Source: a virus
Lineage: Duplodnaviria > Caudoviricetes
Direction: 5' to 3' (one strand)
Virus record (IMG/VR): IMGVR_UViG_2513237100_000001
Location: 22,043-86,042 of that record
DNA: 64,000 bases
The stretch's first letter is position 1; each line of letters starts with the position of its first letter. A model generated the notes under the pieces. It was given only the letters and a program-made list of their open reading frames with translations. It was not told the origin of the DNA and did not search any database. Both the position numbers and the translations under genes were made by a program. Positions 3,828 to 34,030 of this stretch are shown here, one piece after another.

Positions 3828-3861
3828 GTCCTATAGTTTTGCGACTTTAATAACGTGATCA
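3828..3861 (+). repeat. 34-bp inverted repeat, left copy (candidate recombination site)
   Basis: GTCCTATAGTTTTGCGACTTTAATAACGTGATCA, the exact reverse complement of 15894-15927. Confidence 0.9.
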
Positions 3862-3883
3862 AGCAAGGCTGGCCCGGCACCCC

Positions 3884-9876: not shown

Positions 9877-10092
9877 GTGAGACCCCTGAACCCTCCAACC
9901 GAGACGGACGCCGTTGAAGGCGAGCAGGACCCCTTCGGGCCGTACGAGTTCGTCGAGATCCATGATCGATGCCTCGGTGCGGAGGGGGACTGCGACTGGC
10001 AACGCTGCACCCAACGCCGGAGCACCTGCCGCTGCATGTGCCCCGCTTGCTGCGGCGACACCCCCGACGTCTGGGGTGCACCCGTCTACTGA
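9877..10092 (+). CDS. small Cys-rich protein
   Basis: AGGAG RBS; CRCMCPACCG. Confidence 0.5.
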   Translation: MRPLNPPTETDAVEGEQDPFGPYEFVEIHDRCLGAEGDCDWQRCTQRRSTCRCMCPACCGDTPDVWGAPVY

Positions 10093-11168
10093 CCCGGTGG
10101 TTCCAGCAGCGGGACCACGTCCACGGACCGGCGGATCTGCTCCATCGTCGTCGGCAACGGCTCCCACCCATACTCGCCAGCCATCACCCAGTTCAACGCC
10201 GTGATCCCCCGCGCGTACGCCTGCCGCAACCCCTGCGCCCTGAGCGGAATCCCCGTCGGCCCCGCCTTCGACGGCGTCAGCGACACCCACAACGCCGACC
10301 GGCCGCCCATCAAGGGCACCTCATCAACCAGCCGCTCCCGAACCTCCAGCCAACGACGCACCGCCACCCGGGACCCTTCCCGCAACTCGAACCACTCCAC
10401 CTCCGGCACCGGCGGCAACGCGGCCGCAACCTCCAGCACCCGGGCCTCCGCCGCCAACGACCGGTCATGCCCCAGCCCCGACAAGACCTTCGCCACCGTC
10501 GACGGATGCAACCCCGTCACCGCGGCGACCTCACCGACCCGAGCCTCATCCCGCCGCTGCGACTGCCGGCGCACCCCAACCGCCACCAACCCCGGCGCCA
10601 GGTCGTCCAACGTCTGCCGGGCCAACTCCCCCGACCGCGGCGCCGCGTCCAGGAGAACGGCGACCATCGCCAGCAGCCGAGCCCGGTCCTCCGGCGACAA
10701 CGCCATCCCGTCCCGCTCCAGCGGGCCCCGACCGGCCAGGTCCACCATCCCCCGATACAACGCCGCCAGCGACCGGCCGCCCACGGTCGGCTTGAGCTCG
10801 GGTACTTCCAGCTCCGGCAACCGCACCCGCCGACCCGCGGGCAACACCCGGGCGGCCAGAATCTCCAAGCAGTTACGAACCACCCGGAGCGTCGTTACCG
10901 GCAGCGGTTTCCCCACGTCCTTGTCCCAGTGCCGCAGCTCGCCGGCCGCAGCCAGGTCCCAGAACGGGCGCAGCGCCGCCCACGTGAACAACTGGGCGGC
11001 CGTACGCGAGGAGCGGGCCGGCATCTCGTCCCGGCCCACCGCCCGGTCGAACATGCCGACAACCATCCGCAATTGCCGCAACCTGCCCTCGGACACCGTG
11101 CCCGCCATGCCGTCGACCACCGCGGCGAGCTGCCGCACCGATGCCGCGCTGTACTGCTTGGGGGTCAC
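10086..11168 (-). CDS. degenerate tyrosine-recombinase-like protein
   Basis: RARLLAMVAVLLDAAPRSGEL (box I Arg), ALWVSL, TMEQIRRS at the HxxR position; the protein ends before any catalytic Tyr. GTGA-coupled to the Cre-like gene. Confidence 0.7.
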   Translation of the reverse strand: MTPKQYSAASVRQLAAVVDGMAGTVSEGRLRQLRMVVGMFDRAVGRDEMPARSSRTAAQLFTWAALRPFWDLAAAGELRHWDKDVGKPLPVTTLRVVRNCLEILAARVLPAGRRVRLPELEVPELKPTVGGRSLAALYRGMVDLAGRGPLERDGMALSPEDRARLLAMVAVLLDAAPRSGELARQTLDDLAPGLVAVGVRRQSQRRDEARVGEVAAVTGLHPSTVAKVLSGLGHDRSLAAEARVLEVAAALPPVPEVEWFELREGSRVAVRRWLEVRERLVDEVPLMGGRSALWVSLTPSKAGPTGIPLRAQGLRQAYARGITALNWVMAGEYGWEPLPTTMEQIRRSVDVVPLLEPPGQ

Positions 11169-12313
11169 GTGGGCCCCTCGCTCTGGGCGGCGGCCTTCTT
11201 CGCGATCTGGGACAGCGGGTTGCGGTCCCCAGTGCTGTCCTCCTCGTCGATGTACCCGATCAGGGCCTTCGACCGGTCGTCCCACCCGCCGTGCCGGCCG
11301 ATGTCCACGATGTCAGCCCCCGCGGCACGGGCACTCTTCACCAGGCCGCGGCGCAGTGAGTGCGACGTCCACTTTCCTGGCAGGCCGGTGCGGTGGATGG
11401 ACCGGCTGACGACGTCGGAGGCCCCGTTGATGCTCATCCGTCCGTCCGGGTCCCCGATCGGCTCACCCTTGCGGGTCATCTCGGCACCCATGTATCCCCA
11501 CTGGTCGATCCGCATGAACAGCGGCCCCTTGGTGTGCCCTTCGTGTGCGAGGGCTTCCACGAGACTGCGTACAGCGGCGACGGTACACAGGTCGTGGTCC
11601 GGGTCAGGCTGGACTTCGACGTTCTGCCACTTCTTCCGCTTCTTCCGGTACACCCGCACGGTGAACCCGCCTCCGGGCAGGTCGGTGAAGCTGCCCGGCC
11701 AGTTCAGCGGTGCGAGTTCGCTGCCTCGGGAGGCGATGGCGTGCCCGAGGAGCATGAGGGCGGCGTCCCGCTTCCCGACGAGGGTGTTCCGGTCGAGGTG
11801 GGCCAGGGCTTCGGAGAGGACGGTACGGTCGGCGGCCGTCGCCTTGTTCGGGGTCGCGGCCGGGTCCTGGGCTTCGGACAGTTCCCGCCGGTACCCGGCG
11901 ACGACCTTGCGGGCCCCCATGGTGTCCGGCGGCTTGTACCCGGCGGCCCGGTGGGAGGAGCGGATCGACGCGATGATCCGGTCCATCGTCGCGGGCCCGT
12001 ACGGCCGACCGGTTCGCTTGCGGGGCGTGCGCTTCAGGTAGGACAGGTATGCGGTGACGGTCTGCGGCGCGGCGGGCAGGACCCGGCGGCCCACCTGCTC
12101 GCACCATTCGGCGAACTGCTTCATGTCGCCCTCGTACGCCCGGCTGGTGTCCTTCGGGATGCCCGCCCTGACGTCCGCCTCGGCCTCGGGCGGCAGCCAC
12201 GCGTCCGGGTCCTCCTTGGCCAGCGGAACAGCCGGGGCCCGGTCTTCAGGGATCGCGGGGAGCAGGTCACCCTCGATCAACTCCCCGTCCATCACGTTGT
12301 CGTGCTCGGTCAT
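11165..12313 (-). CDS. Cre-like tyrosine recombinase
   Basis: TSRAYEGDMKQFAEWC...LPAAPQTVTAYL; RDAALMLLG..ASRGSEL; SHSLRRG; RHGGW...LIGYI. Confidence 0.9.
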   Translation of the reverse strand: MTEHDNVMDGELIEGDLLPAIPEDRAPAVPLAKEDPDAWLPPEAEADVRAGIPKDTSRAYEGDMKQFAEWCEQVGRRVLPAAPQTVTAYLSYLKRTPRKRTGRPYGPATMDRIIASIRSSHRAAGYKPPDTMGARKVVAGYRRELSEAQDPAATPNKATAADRTVLSEALAHLDRNTLVGKRDAALMLLGHAIASRGSELAPLNWPGSFTDLPGGGFTVRVYRKKRKKWQNVEVQPDPDHDLCTVAAVRSLVEALAHEGHTKGPLFMRIDQWGYMGAEMTRKGEPIGDPDGRMSINGASDVVSRSIHRTGLPGKWTSHSLRRGLVKSARAAGADIVDIGRHGGWDDRSKALIGYIDEEDSTGDRNPLSQIAKKAAAQSEGPT

Positions 12314-12564
12314 CGGCGCAGCCGGATCGTTCGTGCCGCCCGGTGAAGATCCTGGGCCATCGCCGCCTGCAACGCTGGCGTGTCCAAGACGAGCAAGCGC
12401 CCGGCAGGGCAGGCGGGACTCGTCATCACGGTGAGGACGGCATCCAGACCCTGCGATGCCACAGCATCGCGCACCTGTCCCTCGCGGTGAGGTTCGCAGA
12501 CGAGGGTGCGCCGCGCGTCACCGATGGCCTGCGCGTAGAACTTGATCTCCTCCTCCAAGGTCAC
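12310..12564 (-). CDS. hypothetical protein
   Basis: Coupled by overlaps to both neighbours. Confidence 0.6.
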   Translation of the reverse strand: MTLEEEIKFYAQAIGDARRTLVCEPHREGQVRDAVASQGLDAVLTVMTSPACPAGRLLVLDTPALQAAMAQDLHRAARTIRLRR

Positions 12565-12953
12565 GGTCGCCAGCCTTCCTGGTAGTCCGGGTGGTCGGCG
12601 TACGGCAGAAGCTCGTACGGAAGTAGCGCGGACGCCAAGTCGTACGAGTCGTGCCCAGCCTCGATGGCGTCAGACAGTGCGGCAAGACGCTTGCGTGCAG
12701 CCTGCGTCTCCCTCAGCGTTCGAGCCGGATCCTGTTTCGCAATGTGCTCGGCCTGCTCCTCGCTTGGAGACCCCTCATCGAAAACAACCGCCTCCGTGAA
12801 TACGTCGGCGTACTCCGGTGCGTTAGCGACGGACACGGGATAGCTTCCATCGGTTGTCCATTCGCCACTCAAGCCGTGGCGCGCACCCTCGGCGGTCCGC
12901 TCATCCTCGTCCAGACGTGACTGCCAGAACGCCAGCATTTCGGACTCGTTCAC
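12561..12953 (-). CDS. DUF6221-like phage protein (second copy)
   Basis: LAFWQSRLDEDERTA...AEHIAKQDPARTLRE...LPYADHPDYQEGWRP. Confidence 0.75.
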   Translation of the reverse strand: MNESEMLAFWQSRLDEDERTAEGARHGLSGEWTTDGSYPVSVANAPEYADVFTEAVVFDEGSPSEEQAEHIAKQDPARTLRETQAARKRLAALSDAIEAGHDSYDLASALLPYELLPYADHPDYQEGWRP

Positions 12954-13016
12954 GACCGTCTCCCCTGCTCTGATCTTTGACTCCATAGAAGGAACATTAC
13001 CAACAGTGATAGGCAT

Positions 13017-13054
13017 CACACTGCCCCGCGCGGACTGGCGCGCGGGGCAGTGTG
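13017..13054. terminator. strong hairpin
   Basis: CACACTGCCCCGCGCG...CGCGCGGGGCAGTGTG. Confidence 0.65.
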
Positions 13055-13390
13055 GACGTCTGTGTGAATCTTCGCTGTGCGCGATCCTAAGGATCAGGCC
13101 CGGATGCACGGAGTGCGGATCACCTTGTTCTCGCCCTTGTCGCGCCCGCAGATCCGGCAGGCACTCTCTATTGGGTGCTCAGGGCAGAAGGGGCGACCTC
13201 GCGAGTCCTGCGACCATCCTGCGACCAGGCGGCGTACCGGAGTTCGCCGGACGCAGTCGTCGACCTGGCAGCACGCCTGGGGCTTCGAGAGGAAGGGGCT
13301 CATGCTTCCAGCGTGGCACGGATGCGTTGTCGCGCTGCCCCCGCTCAAGGCATGCGCGTGTCCACCATTGCGGGCGCTCGTTGCCACGGT

Positions 13391-13570
13391 ATGAACGAAT
13401 TCACGCAGCAAGTGCAGGACGCGTACGACCGAGGCGGCAAGGGCGAGGCCCGAAAGGTCTTCCTGGACACGTGCCTTGAAAGGGACTGGACAAAGGACGA
13501 AATCGTCGAGGCCATCACGCTCTACAGGTCCTTCCCTATCAGGGAAGAGGCTGGCCACGCGTCAGCCTAG
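13391..13570 (+). CDS. small hypothetical protein
   Basis: MNEFTQQVQDAYDRGGKGEARKVFLDTC...; protein-like composition. Confidence 0.5.
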   Translation: MNEFTQQVQDAYDRGGKGEARKVFLDTCLERDWTKDEIVEAITLYRSFPIREEAGHASA

Positions 13571-13636
13571 CGGGCGCGCAGGGCCACCACGGCAGTACGG
13601 GGAACCACGGGCGGGACCACGTACCGAGCATCCGCG

Positions 13637-13795
13637 TCACGGGTACAGGAGCCGGGACAGTGGCGTGGGGCGGGCCCCGGGTTCGTGCGGCCGGTCCGGC
13701 GGTTCGGGCTCGGCCGCTGGCGCCTCGGTGACGATCTGGTCGTGCGGGTCCAGGCTGGCGGGTTCCGTGGCCGGCTCGGCGTGGTTCGCGCTCAC
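13637..13795 (-). CDS. small leaderless ORF behind an ACCAGGGG-box promoter
   Basis: GTG 6 nt after a -10-like GACCGT; VSANHAEPATEP... Confidence 0.35.
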   Translation of the reverse strand: MSANHAEPATEPASLDPHDQIVTEAPAAEPEPPDRPHEPGARPTPLSRLLYP

Positions 13796-13953
13796 GACTC
13801 CACGGTCCCACTGTGCGGGCGGGATGTTGCCCCTGGTGGTCTGTCACGGCGCGGTAAACGGGGAGGTGTTCCCCGGTTCTTCGCCAGGAGCGATCCTGCG
13901 GCGAGAGGGCGTGGAGTGCATTGGCGGGCGACACGCTGCATAACCCTTGGAAT

Positions 13954-13990
13954 CCTTGGGTTGCCAAACGTTACCTTGGGTTGCTAGCCT
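13954..13990 (+). promoter_or_regulatory. promoter of the small-gene array with repeated operator
   Basis: TTGCCA-N18-TAGCCT then ATG 6 nt later; CCTTGGGTTGC at 13954 and 13974. Confidence 0.6.
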
Positions 13991-13996
13991 GATGGC

Positions 13997-14311
13997 ATGA
14001 CAGGCACCGCAGAACCCACCGGCCGCTGCTACTGCGGCTGCGGCAAACTCGTCGGCTACGGCCGGTACTTCGCCGCCGGCCACGACAAGACCGCCGAAGC
14101 CGCCTTCCTCGCCCTCCACCACAACGGCACCGTCGCCCAGATGCTCCACGACCACGGCTATCGGGCCGTCGCCGACCGGGACGACGCCAAGTCCGTCACG
14201 AAGGCGGCCGTCGACCAGAAGTTGTGGCAGGAGTGCCCGAAGGGGTGCGGCTACCGAGGCGCCCGCGAAAGCATCAACAACCACGTCAACCGACACCACA
14301 AGGAGAACTGA
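13997..14311 (+). CDS. small Cys/His-rich protein
   Basis: CYCGCG...FAAGHD...CPKGC...H..RHH. Confidence 0.75.
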   Translation: MTGTAEPTGRCYCGCGKLVGYGRYFAAGHDKTAEAAFLALHHNGTVAQMLHDHGYRAVADRDDAKSVTKAAVDQKLWQECPKGCGYRGARESINNHVNRHHKEN

Positions 14312-14313
14312 CC

Positions 14314-14574
14314 ATGGCGCAGGTAACCGCCCGCGACGCCCTGACCTACTCGCTCAAGCGAGAGCAGGCCCAGTTCGCGGAGGAGGCCGAGCGGCTGGCC
14401 AAGCAGGCCGCGTACATCGCCGCGAACCCGGCCGCCACTGGTCGGACGATCTCCGGCGACATCGCCCGCCTGCTTCAGGAGGCCACCTTCCTCCTGAAGC
14501 GCGCCGCCACCATCGAAGCCGGACTCGAAGCTGTCGAGCTCATGGGTGCCGAAGCCATCACCACCGAGCAGTGA
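14314..14574 (+). CDS. cassette gene 1, helical protein ending TTEQ
   Basis: AAGGAG RBS; ends in the junction motif. Confidence 0.75.
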   Translation: MAQVTARDALTYSLKREQAQFAEEAERLAKQAAYIAANPAATGRTISGDIARLLQEATFLLKRAATIEAGLEAVELMGAEAITTEQ

Positions 14575-14585
14575 GGACGACGACC

Positions 14586-14756
14586 ATGGCGCTGTGCCGC
14601 GACTGCTCCCGCGTCATCCCGTGCCACTGCCACGTCGCACCAGCCGTACAGATCCGGCCCGGTGTGTACGAGGCGGGGACTCGACCGAGTGCACCACTGA
14701 CCATCGAAGAACGGCGGCGCCTCGTCGGGGGCCCGTCACCCACCACCAAGCAGTAA
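14586..14756 (+). CDS. cassette gene 2 (CxxC) ending TTKQ
   Basis: Starts and ends in junction motifs. Confidence 0.6.
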   Translation: MALCRDCSRVIPCHCHVAPAVQIRPGVYEAGTRPSAPLTIEERRRLVGGPSPTTKQ

Positions 14757-14767
14757 GGACTACGACT

Positions 14768-14965
14768 ATGAGTAACACCGTCACCCGGATCACGAATCGG
14801 CTGCACGAGGAAGCGCTGATCGAAAACGAGGAGCGCGACTGGTACCGAACGGGCCGAATCCCGTGCAGCGACTGCGGCACGATGGTCCGCACCAAGACCC
14901 TGGAAACCCTGCCGCCGCACGGCTGCACCGACCGCCAGCGTGCCCGACACGCCACCGAGCAGTGA
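14768..14965 (+). CDS. cassette gene 3 (CxxC...H.C) ending ATEQ
   Basis: Starts and ends in junction motifs. Confidence 0.7.
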   Translation: MSNTVTRITNRLHEEALIENEERDWYRTGRIPCSDCGTMVRTKTLETLPPHGCTDRQRARHATEQ

Positions 14966-14976
14966 GGACCACGACC

Positions 14977-15366
14977 ATGGAGGAAACCTTCCAGCACCAC
15001 TGGGGACAGGTCTACGAATCCTGCAACCCCGACGAGAAGAAGCACCTGATCATCGAATCCATCGACCGGGCCGCAGGAACCGCCAAGGTCAGCTTCCCCG
15101 GCGGACGCGGAGGCCGCGACCGAAACAGGCGACGGCGCACCATCAAGCTGTCCTCGCTCCATTCCACCGGAACAACCCGAACCGGAGCTCAGCGACGCAG
15201 CGGATATCGCCTCATGGCCGGTCCCCCGAAGAGCGGTGAGGACATGTGCGAGATGTGCTACCACTACTTCAACCGGCCTGACCTGGAATCCGGTTGCTGC
15301 CAGCCGTGTACACAGTGGCTGACGGAAACCTTCCCGCGCCCCTCCGTAAGGACCACCCATGCGTAA
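14977..15366 (+). CDS. cassette gene 4 (C-terminal Cys cluster)
   Basis: GQVYESCNP...IKLSSLHST...SGYRL; CEMC...CCQPC. Confidence 0.7.
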   Translation: MEETFQHHWGQVYESCNPDEKKHLIIESIDRAAGTAKVSFPGGRGGRDRNRRRRTIKLSSLHSTGTTRTGAQRRSGYRLMAGPPKSGEDMCEMCYHYFNRPDLESGCCQPCTQWLTETFPRPSVRTTHA

Positions 15367-15661
15367 CGTCGTTCCGCAAGACATCGACGACATCAGCGAA
15401 GACGACGTGAAGCGGATCGTCGGCTGGATCGGACGGCACGCACTGCCTGCGACGCTGCCGCACACCATGCCGGAGTACCGCACAGGGCTCGCCCTGGACG
15501 CGGCAGTCAACTGGACTGCGGATCACCTGAGGGCCCGGTACCCGTTGTTGTCAGCTCAAGAGCACCGGAACGTCGTACGCAACGACTGGAACATGCTCGT
15601 CAAGGTCGCAAGTGTGTGGAGTGACGAGGACGACTACCCCGGATGGCAGACCATCCGCTAG
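15359..15661 (+). CDS. cassette gene 5, hypothetical
   Basis: Preceded by GTAAGGACCACCCATG. Confidence 0.7.
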   Translation: MRNVVPQDIDDISEDDVKRIVGWIGRHALPATLPHTMPEYRTGLALDAAVNWTADHLRARYPLLSAQEHRNVVRNDWNMLVKVASVWSDEDDYPGWQTIR

Positions 15662-15893
15662 TAGCGGACCGCGACCATGACGACGTGCCGGGTATACGGC
15701 ACGGTCAAAGCGCCGCCTGACCGAAGCCCAACAGGCCATCAACGACGCCAGCGAGCAGTGAGGACCGCGACCATGAATGTCCGCAGGATCACCAGCGTGC
15801 CCATGAGCGGGCCTGCCACCTACGGCCCCGACGCGGGCAGTATCACGCGTTGGACGATTTAGGGGCGGGTTGGGCGTGGCAGCTCCGCGAGCA

Positions 15894-15927
15894 TGATCAC
15901 GTTATTAAAGTCGCAAAACTATAGGAC
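15894..15927 (-). repeat. 34-bp inverted repeat, right copy
   Basis: TGATCACGTTATTAAAGTCGCAAAACTATAGGAC. Confidence 0.9.
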
Positions 15928-15967
15928 AACGAGGGGCGAGCCCGAGAAACCCCGGACCACCCCACCC

Positions 15968-16348
15968 TCACACTCCAGTTCGGTTGTACTCATCCACCAA
16001 CGGATGCGGATCCGGCGGCGGGCCAACCGGGCTCCGTGCCCACCGGTACAGGTCGTCCATCGACCAGGAGAACGCCTGCAAAATCCGTTCCATGCGGGTC
16101 TGCTTCACCCGGATCTGCTCGTTCTCCGACCGCAGGAGACCGTTCTCCTTGTCCACCCGCTCAACCGTCGCCTGCAACACCGCCAGATCGGCCGTACGAA
16201 GAGCGGGAGCGGCCTGCGCGGCAGCCGCCGCCGTGTTCGCCGCCGCAGTCGCCTGAGCAGCCCGCGTCGTCGCACGGGCCGTGAACACCCCCGCTACAAC
16301 CATGCCAACCGTCCCCAGGACAGCCACCAGCCCAGACCAAATGCTCAT
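15968..16348 (-). CDS. lysis-cassette membrane protein (TM + coiled coil)
   Basis: MSIWSGLVAVLGTVGMVVAG then a heptad region. Confidence 0.7.
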   Translation of the reverse strand: MSIWSGLVAVLGTVGMVVAGVFTARATTRAAQATAAANTAAAAAQAAPALRTADLAVLQATVERVDKENGLLRSENEQIRVKQTRMERILQAFSWSMDDLYRWARSPVGPPPDPHPLVDEYNRTGV

Positions 16349-17070: not shown

Positions 17071-18039
17071 TCAGTGCTCCGTTTCCAGGCGTACGGTGAC
17101 GCCCTTGATGGCGGTCTCGATGCGGGTGATCAGGGCGTCCACGTCCACCGTGGCGTCGCGGGCGGCCAAGGCTTCGGCGAGGGTGCGGACCGTCGCGGTC
17201 ACCGCGGCGATCTCGGTCTGGGCCTGCCGGACCCGCACGTGAATGTCGCGGATGTACGAGTCGGGCGTCCAATGGGTGTTGCCCGGCGCGGCCGTCAACG
17301 GCGACTTGAGGATGCCGTCGGTGGTCCAGATCTTCTTGACGTCGTCGGCGGTCAGGGCCACAGCGACCTCCTTGGTGGGCGTAGTGGGCGTAGTGGGTGC
17401 GGGTGCGCCGCCGGGATTCCAGCTGGCGGGGTGCTTGAGCCGCTCGGCGACATCAGCCCGCAAGCCGGCCATGGCGAACCCGCGGGGGTCGATCTTGTCG
17501 CTCGACCACTCCAGGTGACCGATCACGGACTTCGCGGTCCAGCCGTGGGCCCGGCACAGGGCGGCCTGGACGCGGACGATCGCGTCGTACTGGGCGGCGG
17601 GCCAGGGGTCCTTGCCGTCACCGAGGTTCTCGCACTCCCACCCGTAGAACCGGGCGTTCCCGTCGACCCCGTTGCTGTTGCCCTTGGTGGGCGGCGTGGG
17701 TCGGGTGCTGTACGACTCGGCGATCACCTGGTCCAGGACCTTCGGGTCGCCGCCGCCGGCGTGGTTGGTTCGGCCCCAGCCGACGAGGTGCACCTGACCG
17801 TCCTTCGCGATCATGCCGTGGCACAGGGGGCCCGGTAGTCCGGAGTACCCGTCACGGACCATGGCGACGGTGGATGCGGTGCCCTTGGTGACGGTGTGGT
17901 GGACGATGCTGCCGTTCAGCGGGCCCCAAGCCCCGTGACCGGCCCGGTTGCGGGTGCGCCAGTTGCCGACCTCGACAACGGTCACGCCCTCGTCGAGCAG
18001 CGCCTTGAGGACCGCGGCGGCGGACAGTGGTGTGGCCAT
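17071..18039 (-). CDS. endolysin, N-acetylmuramoyl-L-alanine amidase
   Basis: SIVHHTV...PGPLCH...GRTNHAG...GNARFYGWECEN...VIGHLEW...KIDP. Confidence 0.9.
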   Translation of the reverse strand: MATPLSAAAVLKALLDEGVTVVEVGNWRTRNRAGHGAWGPLNGSIVHHTVTKGTASTVAMVRDGYSGLPGPLCHGMIAKDGQVHLVGWGRTNHAGGGDPKVLDQVIAESYSTRPTPPTKGNSNGVDGNARFYGWECENLGDGKDPWPAAQYDAIVRVQAALCRAHGWTAKSVIGHLEWSSDKIDPRGFAMAGLRADVAERLKHPASWNPGGAPAPTTPTTPTKEVAVALTADDVKKIWTTDGILKSPLTAAPGNTHWTPDSYIRDIHVRVRQAQTEIAAVTATVRTLAEALAARDATVDVDALITRIETAIKGVTVRLETEH

Positions 18040-18041
18040 GG

Positions 18042-18440
18042 TCAGCTTCCCTCCTTCGGGTTGGGCGTCACCCGCGGCACGTGGAGCTGGTCCCACGCCA
18101 CCTCGTCCGGGATGCCACTGGTGTCACCGCTGCCCTTGGGGCGCAGCGTGTGCTGGAACGCGGCGAACGCCCGCTTGTGACCGTTCGTCCAGTCCGGTCC
18201 GGGGCTCTGAGCGGTGCCCCAGTGCCCCTCCTGGAACAGGCGGTAGGCCATGGCCTGGACGATCGGGCTGTTGCGGCCGCCGTGGAAGAAGCTGGCGCCC
18301 GGGTAGGGCTCGTACAGGGAGTGGTCCGGGGCCGGCGGGGTTTCCGGTGTTGCGGGTGCCGATGGGGTTTCCCCGGTGTCGGGGGCGTTGTGCTTGGTCG
18401 GCGGGCCGTCGTCCGGGTCGGGTTTGGTGGTGCGGGTCAT
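18042..18440 (-). CDS. stand-alone peptidoglycan-binding-domain protein
   Basis: YEPYPGASFF...SPIVQAM...GPDW...FAAFQ...GIP...WDQLHVP. Confidence 0.7.
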   Translation of the reverse strand: MTRTTKPDPDDGPPTKHNAPDTGETPSAPATPETPPAPDHSLYEPYPGASFFHGGRNSPIVQAMAYRLFQEGHWGTAQSPGPDWTNGHKRAFAAFQHTLRPKGSGDTSGIPDEVAWDQLHVPRVTPNPKEGS

Positions 18441-33052: not shown

Positions 33053-33432
33053 CAGCCCCTCCCCTGCGCCCAGTCGGCGAGCTGCTGGAGCATCGCCACG
33101 GTCAGCTCGTTGGGGCTGCCGTCGAGGTCGTCCCGCTCCAGGGCGGCGCGCGCGAGGGCGGCGGGGTCGATGTTCGCCAGGAACGCGGCTACCAGCTCCC
33201 CTTCGTCCTGCTCGGGGGCGGCGACGGCGACCTGGGCGAGCCCTTCGAAGTCCAGGCCCCGGTGCGGGGCGGTGTGGAGCACGAGGAGTGGGGCGGCACC
33301 AACTTGGTGCTGAAGGTTGTAGCCCTGGAGGGACCGGCTGATGTCGGTTCCGTCGATCTCCACCTTCCCCGTGACACCGTCAGCGGTGATGCGAACGTGG
33401 CGCGGCTCGTCGGCCATGCTCGGGGCATCCAT
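33052..33432 (-). CDS. hypothetical phage protein
   Basis: RHVRITADG..GKVEIDGTDISRSL. Confidence 0.75.
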   Translation of the reverse strand: MDAPSMADEPRHVRITADGVTGKVEIDGTDISRSLQGYNLQHQVGAAPLLVLHTAPHRGLDFEGLAQVAVAAPEQDEGELVAAFLANIDPAALARAALERDDLDGSPNELTVAMLQQLADWAQGRG

Positions 33433-33920: not shown

Positions 33921-34030
33921 ACGGAGTCTCCGGATTCGATGTCGGTGCCGTCGATAACGACCTTCCCCATGGCGCCGTCGGCGGTGATACGGACGTGGCG
34001 CGGCTCGTCGGCCATGCTGGGGGCGGTCAT
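33917..34030 (-). pseudogene. 37-aa chimeric remnant
   Basis: MTAPSMADEPRHVRITADGAMGKVVIDGTDIESGDSV: N-terminus of the 33052 gene joined to the C-terminus of the 34987 gene. Confidence 0.75.

Follow-up and report, generated by a model that had tools for sequence, protein, structure and literature searches.

The stretch of DNA analysed here (the window, 64,000 nucleotides, nt) comprises bases 22043-86042 of the IMG/VR record IMGVR_UViG_2513237100_000001, an 86,042-base pZL12-like plasmid-phage of Streptomyces. Between the integrase region and the converging lysis and late genes of this element lies a row of small open reading frames (ORFs) on the + strand, here called the array; leftward genes flank it on both sides, which bears out the orientation opposite to the flanking modules proposed in a preliminary description made from the letters of the window. 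The ORFs are joined by a short repeated sequence, the connector (CCACCGAGCAGTGAGGACnnCGACCATG), whose four good copies are the only ones of the genome, all on a single strand and at stop/start junctions of the row. The closest named relative of the element is pZL12 (phage ZL12), with a match, 86% over 377 bp, that covers only the gene at the head of the array, and none of 72,556 plasmid records contains more than 28% of the array of the window.

A search for the 28-nt form of the connector with up to three mismatches gives matches at 14561, 14952 and 15748, with none expected (100 shuffles), and the more diverged copy at 14743 is recovered by a 16-nt core (14755-14770, two mismatches) and is an 81% member of D1, the top direct-repeat family of the window; every copy thus listed in the preliminary description was found in its place. 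Nine matches to the 16-nt core occur in the window against 1.06 expected, five of them within 14573-15775, and degenerate copies end at 15361 (gtaaggaccacccATG) and 15679 (tagtagcggaccgcgaccATG). Over the entire genome of 86,042 bases, both a 22-nt pattern (two mismatches or fewer) and a position-weight scan return four forward and no reverse matches, all in the array, and this confinement argues that the motif is not a generic ribosome site or translation signal of the element. The frames that run into the connectors end in ..TTEQ, ..TTKQ and ..ATEQ, and an unstarted frame in ..ASEQ, which agrees with the TEQ, TKQ or SEQ endings that had been noticed in these unrelated proteins. At E values up to 1, no Rfam model matches the stretch 13400-16200, and Tandem Repeats Finder reports nothing at the array.

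Table 1. Features of the array and its surroundings in window coordinates (aa, amino acids; GC3, GC content at third codon positions)
Feature	Position	Strand	Remarks
Tyrosine integrase	11168-12313	-	left of the array; matches integrase models
DUF6221	12564-13109	-	left of the array
Putative promoter of the array	13945-13996	+	three CCTTGG palindromes, at 13945, 13954 and 13974
Putative promoter boxes	13961-13966, 13985-13990	+	-35 TTGCCA, 18 nt, -10 TAGCCT; 6 nt to ATG
gA	13997-14311	+	104 aa, first array gene; CxCxC near N-terminus; C-terminal CX3C-X11-HX3HH
gB	14314-14574	+	86 aa, ends ..ITTEQ and stop; in-frame GC3 0.83-0.93
Connector copy 1	14552-14588	+	ACC ACC GAG CAG, TGA, GGACGACGACC, ATG; 45.7 bits
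gC	14586-14756	+	56 aa, CxxC..CxC, ends ..PTTKQ and stop; coding signal weak in second half
Connector copy 2, diverged	14734-14770	+	AAG CAG TAA GGACTACGACT ATG; 34.6 bits
gD	14768-14965	+	65 aa, CxxC..HxC, ends ..HATEQ and stop; cassette family F3
Connector copy 3	14943-14979	+	45.1 bits
gE	14977-15366	+	129 aa, CxxC..CCxxC near C-terminus; 8-nt overlap with gF
Degenerate connector	15340-15361	+	cctccgTAAggaccacccATG; TAA out of frame with gE
gF	15359-15661	+	100 aa, without tail (..GWQTIR and stop); in-frame GC3 0.77-0.87
Degenerate connector	15656-15679	+	cgcTAGtagcggaccgcgaccATG
Decayed cassette remnant	15677-15761	+	start MTTCRVYGT resembles family F18 (MPTYRVYGTA)
Connector copy 4	15739-15775	+	40.4 bits
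Last small ORF	15773-15862	+	29 aa (codons), behind connector copy 4; in-frame GC3 0.80-0.87
Right arm of 37-nt inverted repeat	15891-15927	+	just past the array; partner at 3828-3864
Membrane protein and amidase endolysin	17074-18096	-	right of the array

Seven ORFs of the window and ten representatives of the larger cassette families were compared with Pfam, PHROGs and NCBIfam, and none belongs to a family of known function; the only family matches among these 17 proteins are to PHROGs of unknown function, for two of them. The first gene, gA, shows 86% DNA identity to pZL12.37 and has relatives in 30 of the 80 regions that were fetched (with flanks limited to 2 kb in most), and its C-terminal pattern is reminiscent of a C2H2 zinc finger. 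Neither Pfam, PHROGs, NCBIfam nor PDB gives a match for gA, which falls into unnamed actinobacterial hypothetical-protein clusters of the Atlas, with 481, 55 and 57 members; since gA most often stands first in these arrays, it may be a regulator. The joint between gA and gB is a short variant of the connector, AAGGAGAACTGACCATG. An 86% DNA match to gB in Streptomyces plasmids has its right end at the junction ATG, and the upstream neighbour there is a different one. No relatives of gC occur among the fetched arrays, and for gF neither family scans nor the fetched arrays gave convincing relatives, with no Atlas hit above 0.76. The in-frame GC3 of gE is 0.77-0.83, save for 15124-15213, where it is 0.67; as GC3 mostly favours a single frame of 129 aa, its reading as a frameshift or fusion was set aside. 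Stop-codon readthrough or frameshift fusion of cassettes was also dropped, the ORFs lying each one frame back from the one before and no slippery site being evident. In the remnant at 15677-15761, the F18-like start runs out of frame into the tail of another cassette, an unstarted frame that ends in ..RLTEAQQAINDASEQ and a stop, and no frame has a clear GC3 signal; this piece in front of connector copy 4 looks like a deletion scar made without use of the connector.

Relatives were sought in viral contigs with a 19-nt core of the connector and in bacterial genomes with a 23-nt pattern. The connector is present in 42 viral-contig stretches, mostly on contigs of 80-93 kb, and in 36 stretches of bacterial genomes, of which 34 are from Streptomyces and 14 lie on contigs of 84-101 kb, including a complete plasmid of 92,592 bp. 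The two matches outside Streptomyces are single copies. One of them, in the alphaproteobacterium Nitratireductor indicus (L061), is an exact 23-nt match at a true stop/start junction (..GISEK, stop, 11 nt, ATG) with a lipoprotein-like ORF downstream and an upstream part that is not conserved; it is probably due to chance or convergence. In some elements of 86-95 kb there are two connector arrays, separated by about 33 kb (the IMG/VR contig of L026 and L045, and the genome contig of L060 and L081).

The consensus of the connector is gCCGACCGCaCCACCGAGAAG-TGA-GGACACCGACC-ATG, and its extent is about 35-38 nt, from the last four to seven codons of the upstream gene (..GCC GAC CGC ACC ACC GAG AAG/CAG) through the ATG, with the TGA overlapping a GAGG Shine-Dalgarno core 9 nt before the ATG. 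The motif played no part in finding nine further loci, which were reached by way of the gA protein, and all nine have junctions of the form ACCGAGAAG-TGA-GGACACCGACC-ATG. In 65 distinct junction windows, conservation reaches beyond the searched pattern to about -27 (C-24 92%, C-21 94%, G-20 94%, A-19 92%, G-18 91%), fades by -35 and ends at the ATG, and a weight matrix run over 274 kb of related loci gives 105 forward and no reverse matches. Among 130 internal junctions the gap between stop and ATG is exactly 11 nt in 88, the stop is TGA in 120 and the start is ATG in 111. The PGAP annotation of a complete Streptomyces californicus plasmid shows six hypothetical genes separated by five consecutive 11-nt gaps, in an array with a divergent tyrosine recombinase on its left and converging late genes on its right. 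The connector comes in two flavours, GAGAAG..GGACACC and GAGCAG..GGACCAC (AAG with ACC, 43; CAG with CAC, 11; mixed, 5 and 1), which are largely array-specific, a few arrays being mixed and a few junctions chimeric. The copies of one array resemble each other more closely (0.737) than they do those of other arrays (0.696), a difference reached in none of 500 permutations.

The upstream half of the connector is translated, and unrelated cassette proteins end in ..(A/T)DR(A/T)TEK or ..TTEQ. The threonine codon of this tail is ACC in 57 of 57 cases at position -3 and in 25 of 25 at -4, against 63.5% in the bodies of the genes, the junctions counted not being independent, and where other residues stand at these positions they keep C as third base. 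Members of one protein family share a conserved core that stops short of the tail, and the tail follows its context (gA family, F9, F14 and F1): in the gA family, ..NRHH is followed by REK, REQ, RRDEN, RTTEK or KEN. Tails in EK or EQ are found in 92 of the 130 internal cassettes and 15 of the 43 terminal ones, and behind a terminal cassette with a tail the 3' half of the connector is usually decayed and a GC-rich hairpin comes next. Judged from these codons, the shared TEK/TEQ tail is translated connector DNA that belongs to the junction and not a functional peptide.

The connector would also be a translation signal. With the 16S rRNA 3' end from two Streptomyces genomes (GGATCACCTCCTTTCT), the GAGAAG-extended connector pairs at -9.5 kcal/mol and the GAGCAG form of the window at -8.1, the core alone giving -5.6 and GGAGG -8.7. 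The mean unpaired probability is 0.53-0.65 in the connector vs about 0.38 in the background, save at -15..-11. The pairing and the geometry fit a joint for translational coupling or re-initiation. In six single-strand DNA folds covering both strands the connector forms no hairpin (z +1.79, +1.32, -1.03, -1.78, +0.72 and -0.74), and the lack of an attC-like hairpin, already noted in the preliminary description, is thereby confirmed.

Cassette content was followed with an array walker, which passes from stop to next start and requires a high GC3; it places the starts of first genes only approximately, did not call gA and gB in the window, and obtained a chain from 43 of 44 regions. The 44 regions hold 173 cassettes (median 83 aa) in 97 families, 66 of which are singletons, and two or more Cys/His knuckles are found in 40 of the 173 cassettes and 22 of the 97 families; on the proposal of the preliminary description the products would be small, often Zn-binding effectors for anti-defence or host takeover. 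Which cassettes stand side by side is near random: the six of family F1 have six left and five right neighbours, and the five members of F3, gD among them, have five left and five right neighbours. Among 46 pairs with a common downstream cassette, the upstream cassette is also common in 3. The array of pZL12 consists of gA and one gene only, pZL12.38, which ends in ..TTEQ and is followed by a decayed half-connector.

The breaks between such arrangements fall at the connector. All pairs among the 88 canonical junctions were compared, the 42 junctions with other gaps being left out. Where the genes on both sides are unrelated (3,609 pairs), identity rises from a background of 0.32 to 0.51 at -30 and 0.84-0.95 at -20..-11, is 0.71-0.82 in the spacer and returns to 0.33 from +5; pairs that share the downstream cassette only (43) stay at background until about -35, and pairs that share the upstream cassette only (87) are at background from +5. 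In an all-against-all BLASTN comparison, with flanks of 2-6 kb, 110 of 981 internal left ends lie at -45..-21 of a junction ATG and 136 of 874 right ends at 0..+9, the remainder being mostly backbone matches far from junctions. Matches limited to one cassette, with connectors at either end, also occur: one cassette is 99.3% identical over 293 bp in two contigs whose other common parts are 92-95% identical, the match ending at -21 and +2; a second match, of 96.7% over 517 bp, ends at -35 and +2; and a third, bounded by connectors, is 94.3% over 263 bp. Between the arrays L014 and L012 the difference is precisely a single cassette with one connector, 173 bp in all, and the lone connector of L012 aligns to both copies of L014. 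Across the relatives, gene order is thus not fixed, breakpoints coincide with the motif and the motif is no generic signal, so that the cassette acquisition or shuffling proposed earlier is upheld as to varying content, varying order and breaks at the motif, and not as to the integron-like site-specific mechanism that had been attached to it.

The other ingredient of the array is its upstream region. In all seven aligned relatives the first gene is preceded by CCTTGG palindromes and TTGnCA-18-TAGnCT-GACGGC-ATGACA, and this promoter-like region is kept though the first gene differs (gA, or a protein of 75 or 131 aa), as are the codons ATG ACA. We infer that the conserved region is one regulated promoter with a leaderless start, and the single promoter assumed in the preliminary description is plausible on account of its conserved -35 and -10 boxes. 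A regular expression for the leaderless promoter matches 7 of the 44 regions, the other arrays starting differently or beyond the flank, and a strict promoter and terminator scan, sigma-70 included, finds no site in 13500-16100. At the opposite end, many arrays finish in the same GC-rich hairpin (ggtgccccgcctgaggtaagcaggcggggcacc) a few bases past a decayed half-connector (about 6890-6935 in L012, 6590-6640 in L014 and 7320-7370 in L011), which is probably the operon terminator; the array of the window is without such a hairpin.

The best explanation of these data, and one that is held here to be rather probable, is that the connector is a standard translational connector which also serves as portable homology for cassette shuffling. 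The array would be a single rightward operon in which a promoter and a leaderless first gene are followed by small accessory ORFs joined by connectors. The first job of the connector would be that of a coupling or re-initiation signal, by which any ORF placed behind it could be expressed without a promoter of its own. Its second job, supported by the comparison of relatives, would stem from its family-wide near-identity in the same orientation: about 35 nt of near-identical sequence, running in the same direction every 150-500 bp and spread over a phage family, make a natural substrate for homologous recombination or copy-choice. Such events between connectors, whose enzymology can only be surmised, would delete, insert or swap whole cassettes, and every recombinant would keep intact ORFs with their start signals.

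Several points weigh against this explanation. The pairing to 16S rRNA is moderate, for among random 30-mers drawn from these loci 19% attain the average of the junctions (-10.3 kcal/mol), and it explains neither the ACC ACC codons nor the ACCGACC spacer. Most loci were found through the motif, which fixes positions -16..+2 by ascertainment, and only positions -35..-17 and the 11 gA-anchored arrays are free of this bias; some of the compared contigs are, moreover, near-duplicates of one another. The greater likeness of copies within an array would fit gene conversion together with crossovers inside the connector, and it would fit a genome-specific trans-acting factor equally well. Most homologous cassettes are old (DNA identity 0.55-0.63). 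Finally, the preliminary description had named Sak as a possible driver, and none of the five Pfam families Rad52, RecT, ERF, SSAP_Sak and AAA_24 is found in the genome, so that recombination would have to rely on the host or on an unrecognised function.

Among the alternatives, the one that survives best takes the connector as the mRNA binding site of a trans-acting protein or RNA that switches translation or stability of all cistrons, with shuffling as a by-product. A comparable case would be that of T4 RegA and RegB, which act on early ribosome sites. Such a factor would explain why conservation extends past 16S pairing, into ACC ACC and the ACCGACC spacer, and why the motif is strictly one-stranded and start-associated; the array-specific flavours could then mean co-adaptation to a genome-specific factor. 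The start-associated sequences (SAS) of cluster K mycobacteriophages, for which a factor of this kind has been proposed, offer a published parallel, similar in position and, in the part of the source that deals with them, equally unexplained (PMC3203893). However, no candidate factor was found, gA itself being present in 30 of the 80 fetched regions, and the locking of the stop codon and the upstream frame into the motif is left unaccounted for. This alternative is possible but on the unlikely side, and it is compatible with the translational-connector explanation rather than exclusive of it.

A more doubtful proposal is a dedicated cassette-exchange system, a "translational integron", in which an unrecognised phage function would act on the joint of stop, Shine-Dalgarno core and start. 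Possible candidates for that function are a recombinase, an annealing protein and gA, whose motifs resemble zinc fingers; it would capture and excise ORFs that lack a promoter and pass them between co-resident elements, with translation following at once, and selection for exchange, beyond translation alone, would maintain the connector. A true integron-like mechanism, in which a dedicated enzyme, be it the tyrosine recombinase next to the array or another, treats the connector as its recombination site and moves cassettes as circles, is improbable. Its attraction lies in a divergent tyrosine recombinase gene 1.7 kb upstream of the array, likewise present in pZL12 and in the S. californicus plasmid, and in promoterless one-way cassettes behind one promoter with breakpoints at the motif. 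The recombinase at 11168-12313(-), however, gives only weak XerC/XerD-type matches in NCBIfam (25 bits vs cut-offs of 279-371) and no match to the integron-integrase model in the same scan; the second tyrosine recombinase of the preliminary description, at 10089-11285(-), matches no model at all. The connector is asymmetric, without dyad symmetry or hairpin (z from -1.8 to +1.8 in the six folds), and its limits coincide exactly with a stop codon and a start codon, a register that a recombinase site has no reason to respect. Relatives of the integrase occur in 23 of the 80 fetched regions (limited flanks), and some contigs carry a second array elsewhere.

Very improbable is a stoperator-like DNA operator, at which a repressor would block transcription through the array in the prophage state: an asymmetric site, in one orientation to transcription and in short intergenic gaps, would suit it, but the copies lie in one operon and not genome-wide, in exact register to stop and ATG (11 nt in 88 of 130) and with a ribosome-site core at the proper distance from the ATG. 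It is scarcely credible that the DNA is conserved because the C-terminal ..DRTTEK/TTEQ works as a tag, for instance a degron or a signal for sorting or packaging; although 92 of the 130 internal proteins end in EK or EQ, the conservation is at the nucleotide level (ACC for Thr, third-base C kept), the untranslated 11-nt spacer is conserved as much as the tail, 28 of the 43 terminal cassettes are without tail, and tails differ within one protein family.

Short repeats between genes are known from other phages and mobile elements. In the hypervariable region of T4-type phages, PeSL are short regulatory repeats between small non-essential ORFans, each composed of a sigma-70 promoter and a terminator stem-loop that act on transcription, and mini-circles have been shown, according to the sections consulted (Arbiol et al. 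2010, PMC2839356). As with PeSL in those sections, where relatives differ by genes gained, lost or replaced, the change begins and ends at the connector, recombination between copies would bring such changes about, and each gene would arrive with its expression signal (PMC2839356). Unlike PeSL, the connector has neither sigma-70 promoter nor stem-loop terminator, according to the strict scan and the folds, and it is a translation joint inside one operon that reaches into the upstream coding sequence and has a fixed spacing of 11 nt. PeSL cassettes of T4-type phages were reportedly treated also by Comeau et al. in 2014.

In cluster K mycobacteriophages, SAS/ESAS are 13-bp sequences (GGGATAGGAGCCC) present in 11-19 copies across half of the genome (Pope et al. 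2011, PMC3203893). As far as the relevant portion of that source goes, the connector is like them an asymmetric repeat of one orientation upstream of mostly ATG starts (here 111 of 130), associated with non-structural genes of differing families; both combine a Shine-Dalgarno core with conserved positions that 16S rRNA cannot pair with, and neither occurs in the background of the host genome. Unlike SAS, which are not so described in that portion, the connector takes in the stop and the tail codons of the gene before it, at a constant spacing, and marks the breakpoints of shuffling. The SAS consensus GGGATAGGAGCCC itself has one match with two mismatches in the 64 kb, outside the array, vs 2.35 expected.

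Integrons share with the array promoterless cassettes in one direction behind one inferred promoter, a divergent tyrosine recombinase and highly variable content, and differ from it in that here there is no IntI-type match, no attC hairpin and no folded single-strand site, the repeat being a translation joint. In lambdoid phages, boundary or linker sequences are short conserved sequences at gene boundaries that have been proposed as crossover points, and the stoperators of cluster A phages are asymmetric intergenic repressor sites in one orientation, spread genome-wide. The connector is unlike both in being a fixed unit of stop, Shine-Dalgarno core, 11 nt and ATG at the junctions of one operon, and unlike stoperators in being restricted to the array. 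Cluster A stoperators are mentioned in the part of the cluster K source considered here (PMC3203893). In its effect the connector therefore resembles PeSL and in its position SAS, but it belongs to neither family and is no integron. Literature searches for the letters of the motif, for start or intergenic motifs of Streptomyces phages and for cassette shuffling, supplements aside, returned no description of it.

Hypervariable accessory genes would in this element be kept by a route other than the promoter-terminator cassettes of PeSL or integrons. Because the exchangeable joint would be a translation signal that takes in the last codons of the ORF before it, each recombinant would automatically be an intact coupled polycistron. 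The array offers a concrete and testable case for the old question of whether phage mosaicism is driven by short conserved sequences at gene boundaries, in an element that lives as a plasmid-prophage in genetically tractable Streptomyces. Its about 100 families of small, mostly unknown proteins are a likely pool of host-interaction genes, and the connector could serve as a naturally occurring standard part for linking cistrons when high-GC actinomycetes are made to express polycistrons.

Near the right end of the array, where the preliminary description had a 34-bp site, lies one arm of a 37-nt inverted repeat (3828-3864(-) and 15891-15927(+); 97% complementary and AT-rich for the genome, GTCCTATAGTTTTGCGACTTTAATAACGTGATCA..). 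The arms bracket a 12-kb segment with a WYL gene, the integrase, DUF6221 and the entire array, and read inward they resemble TTGTCC-16-TAATAA; the site also lies to the right of the array in pZL12, and the other fetched loci hold no exact copy. The repeat could be a convergent promoter pair or form the ends of an invertible or mobile segment. Elsewhere in the window, the two copies of a direct repeat of 87 nt (33340-33426 and 33938-34024), 87% identical and 598 nt apart, suggest two adjacent paralogous genes on the minus strand.

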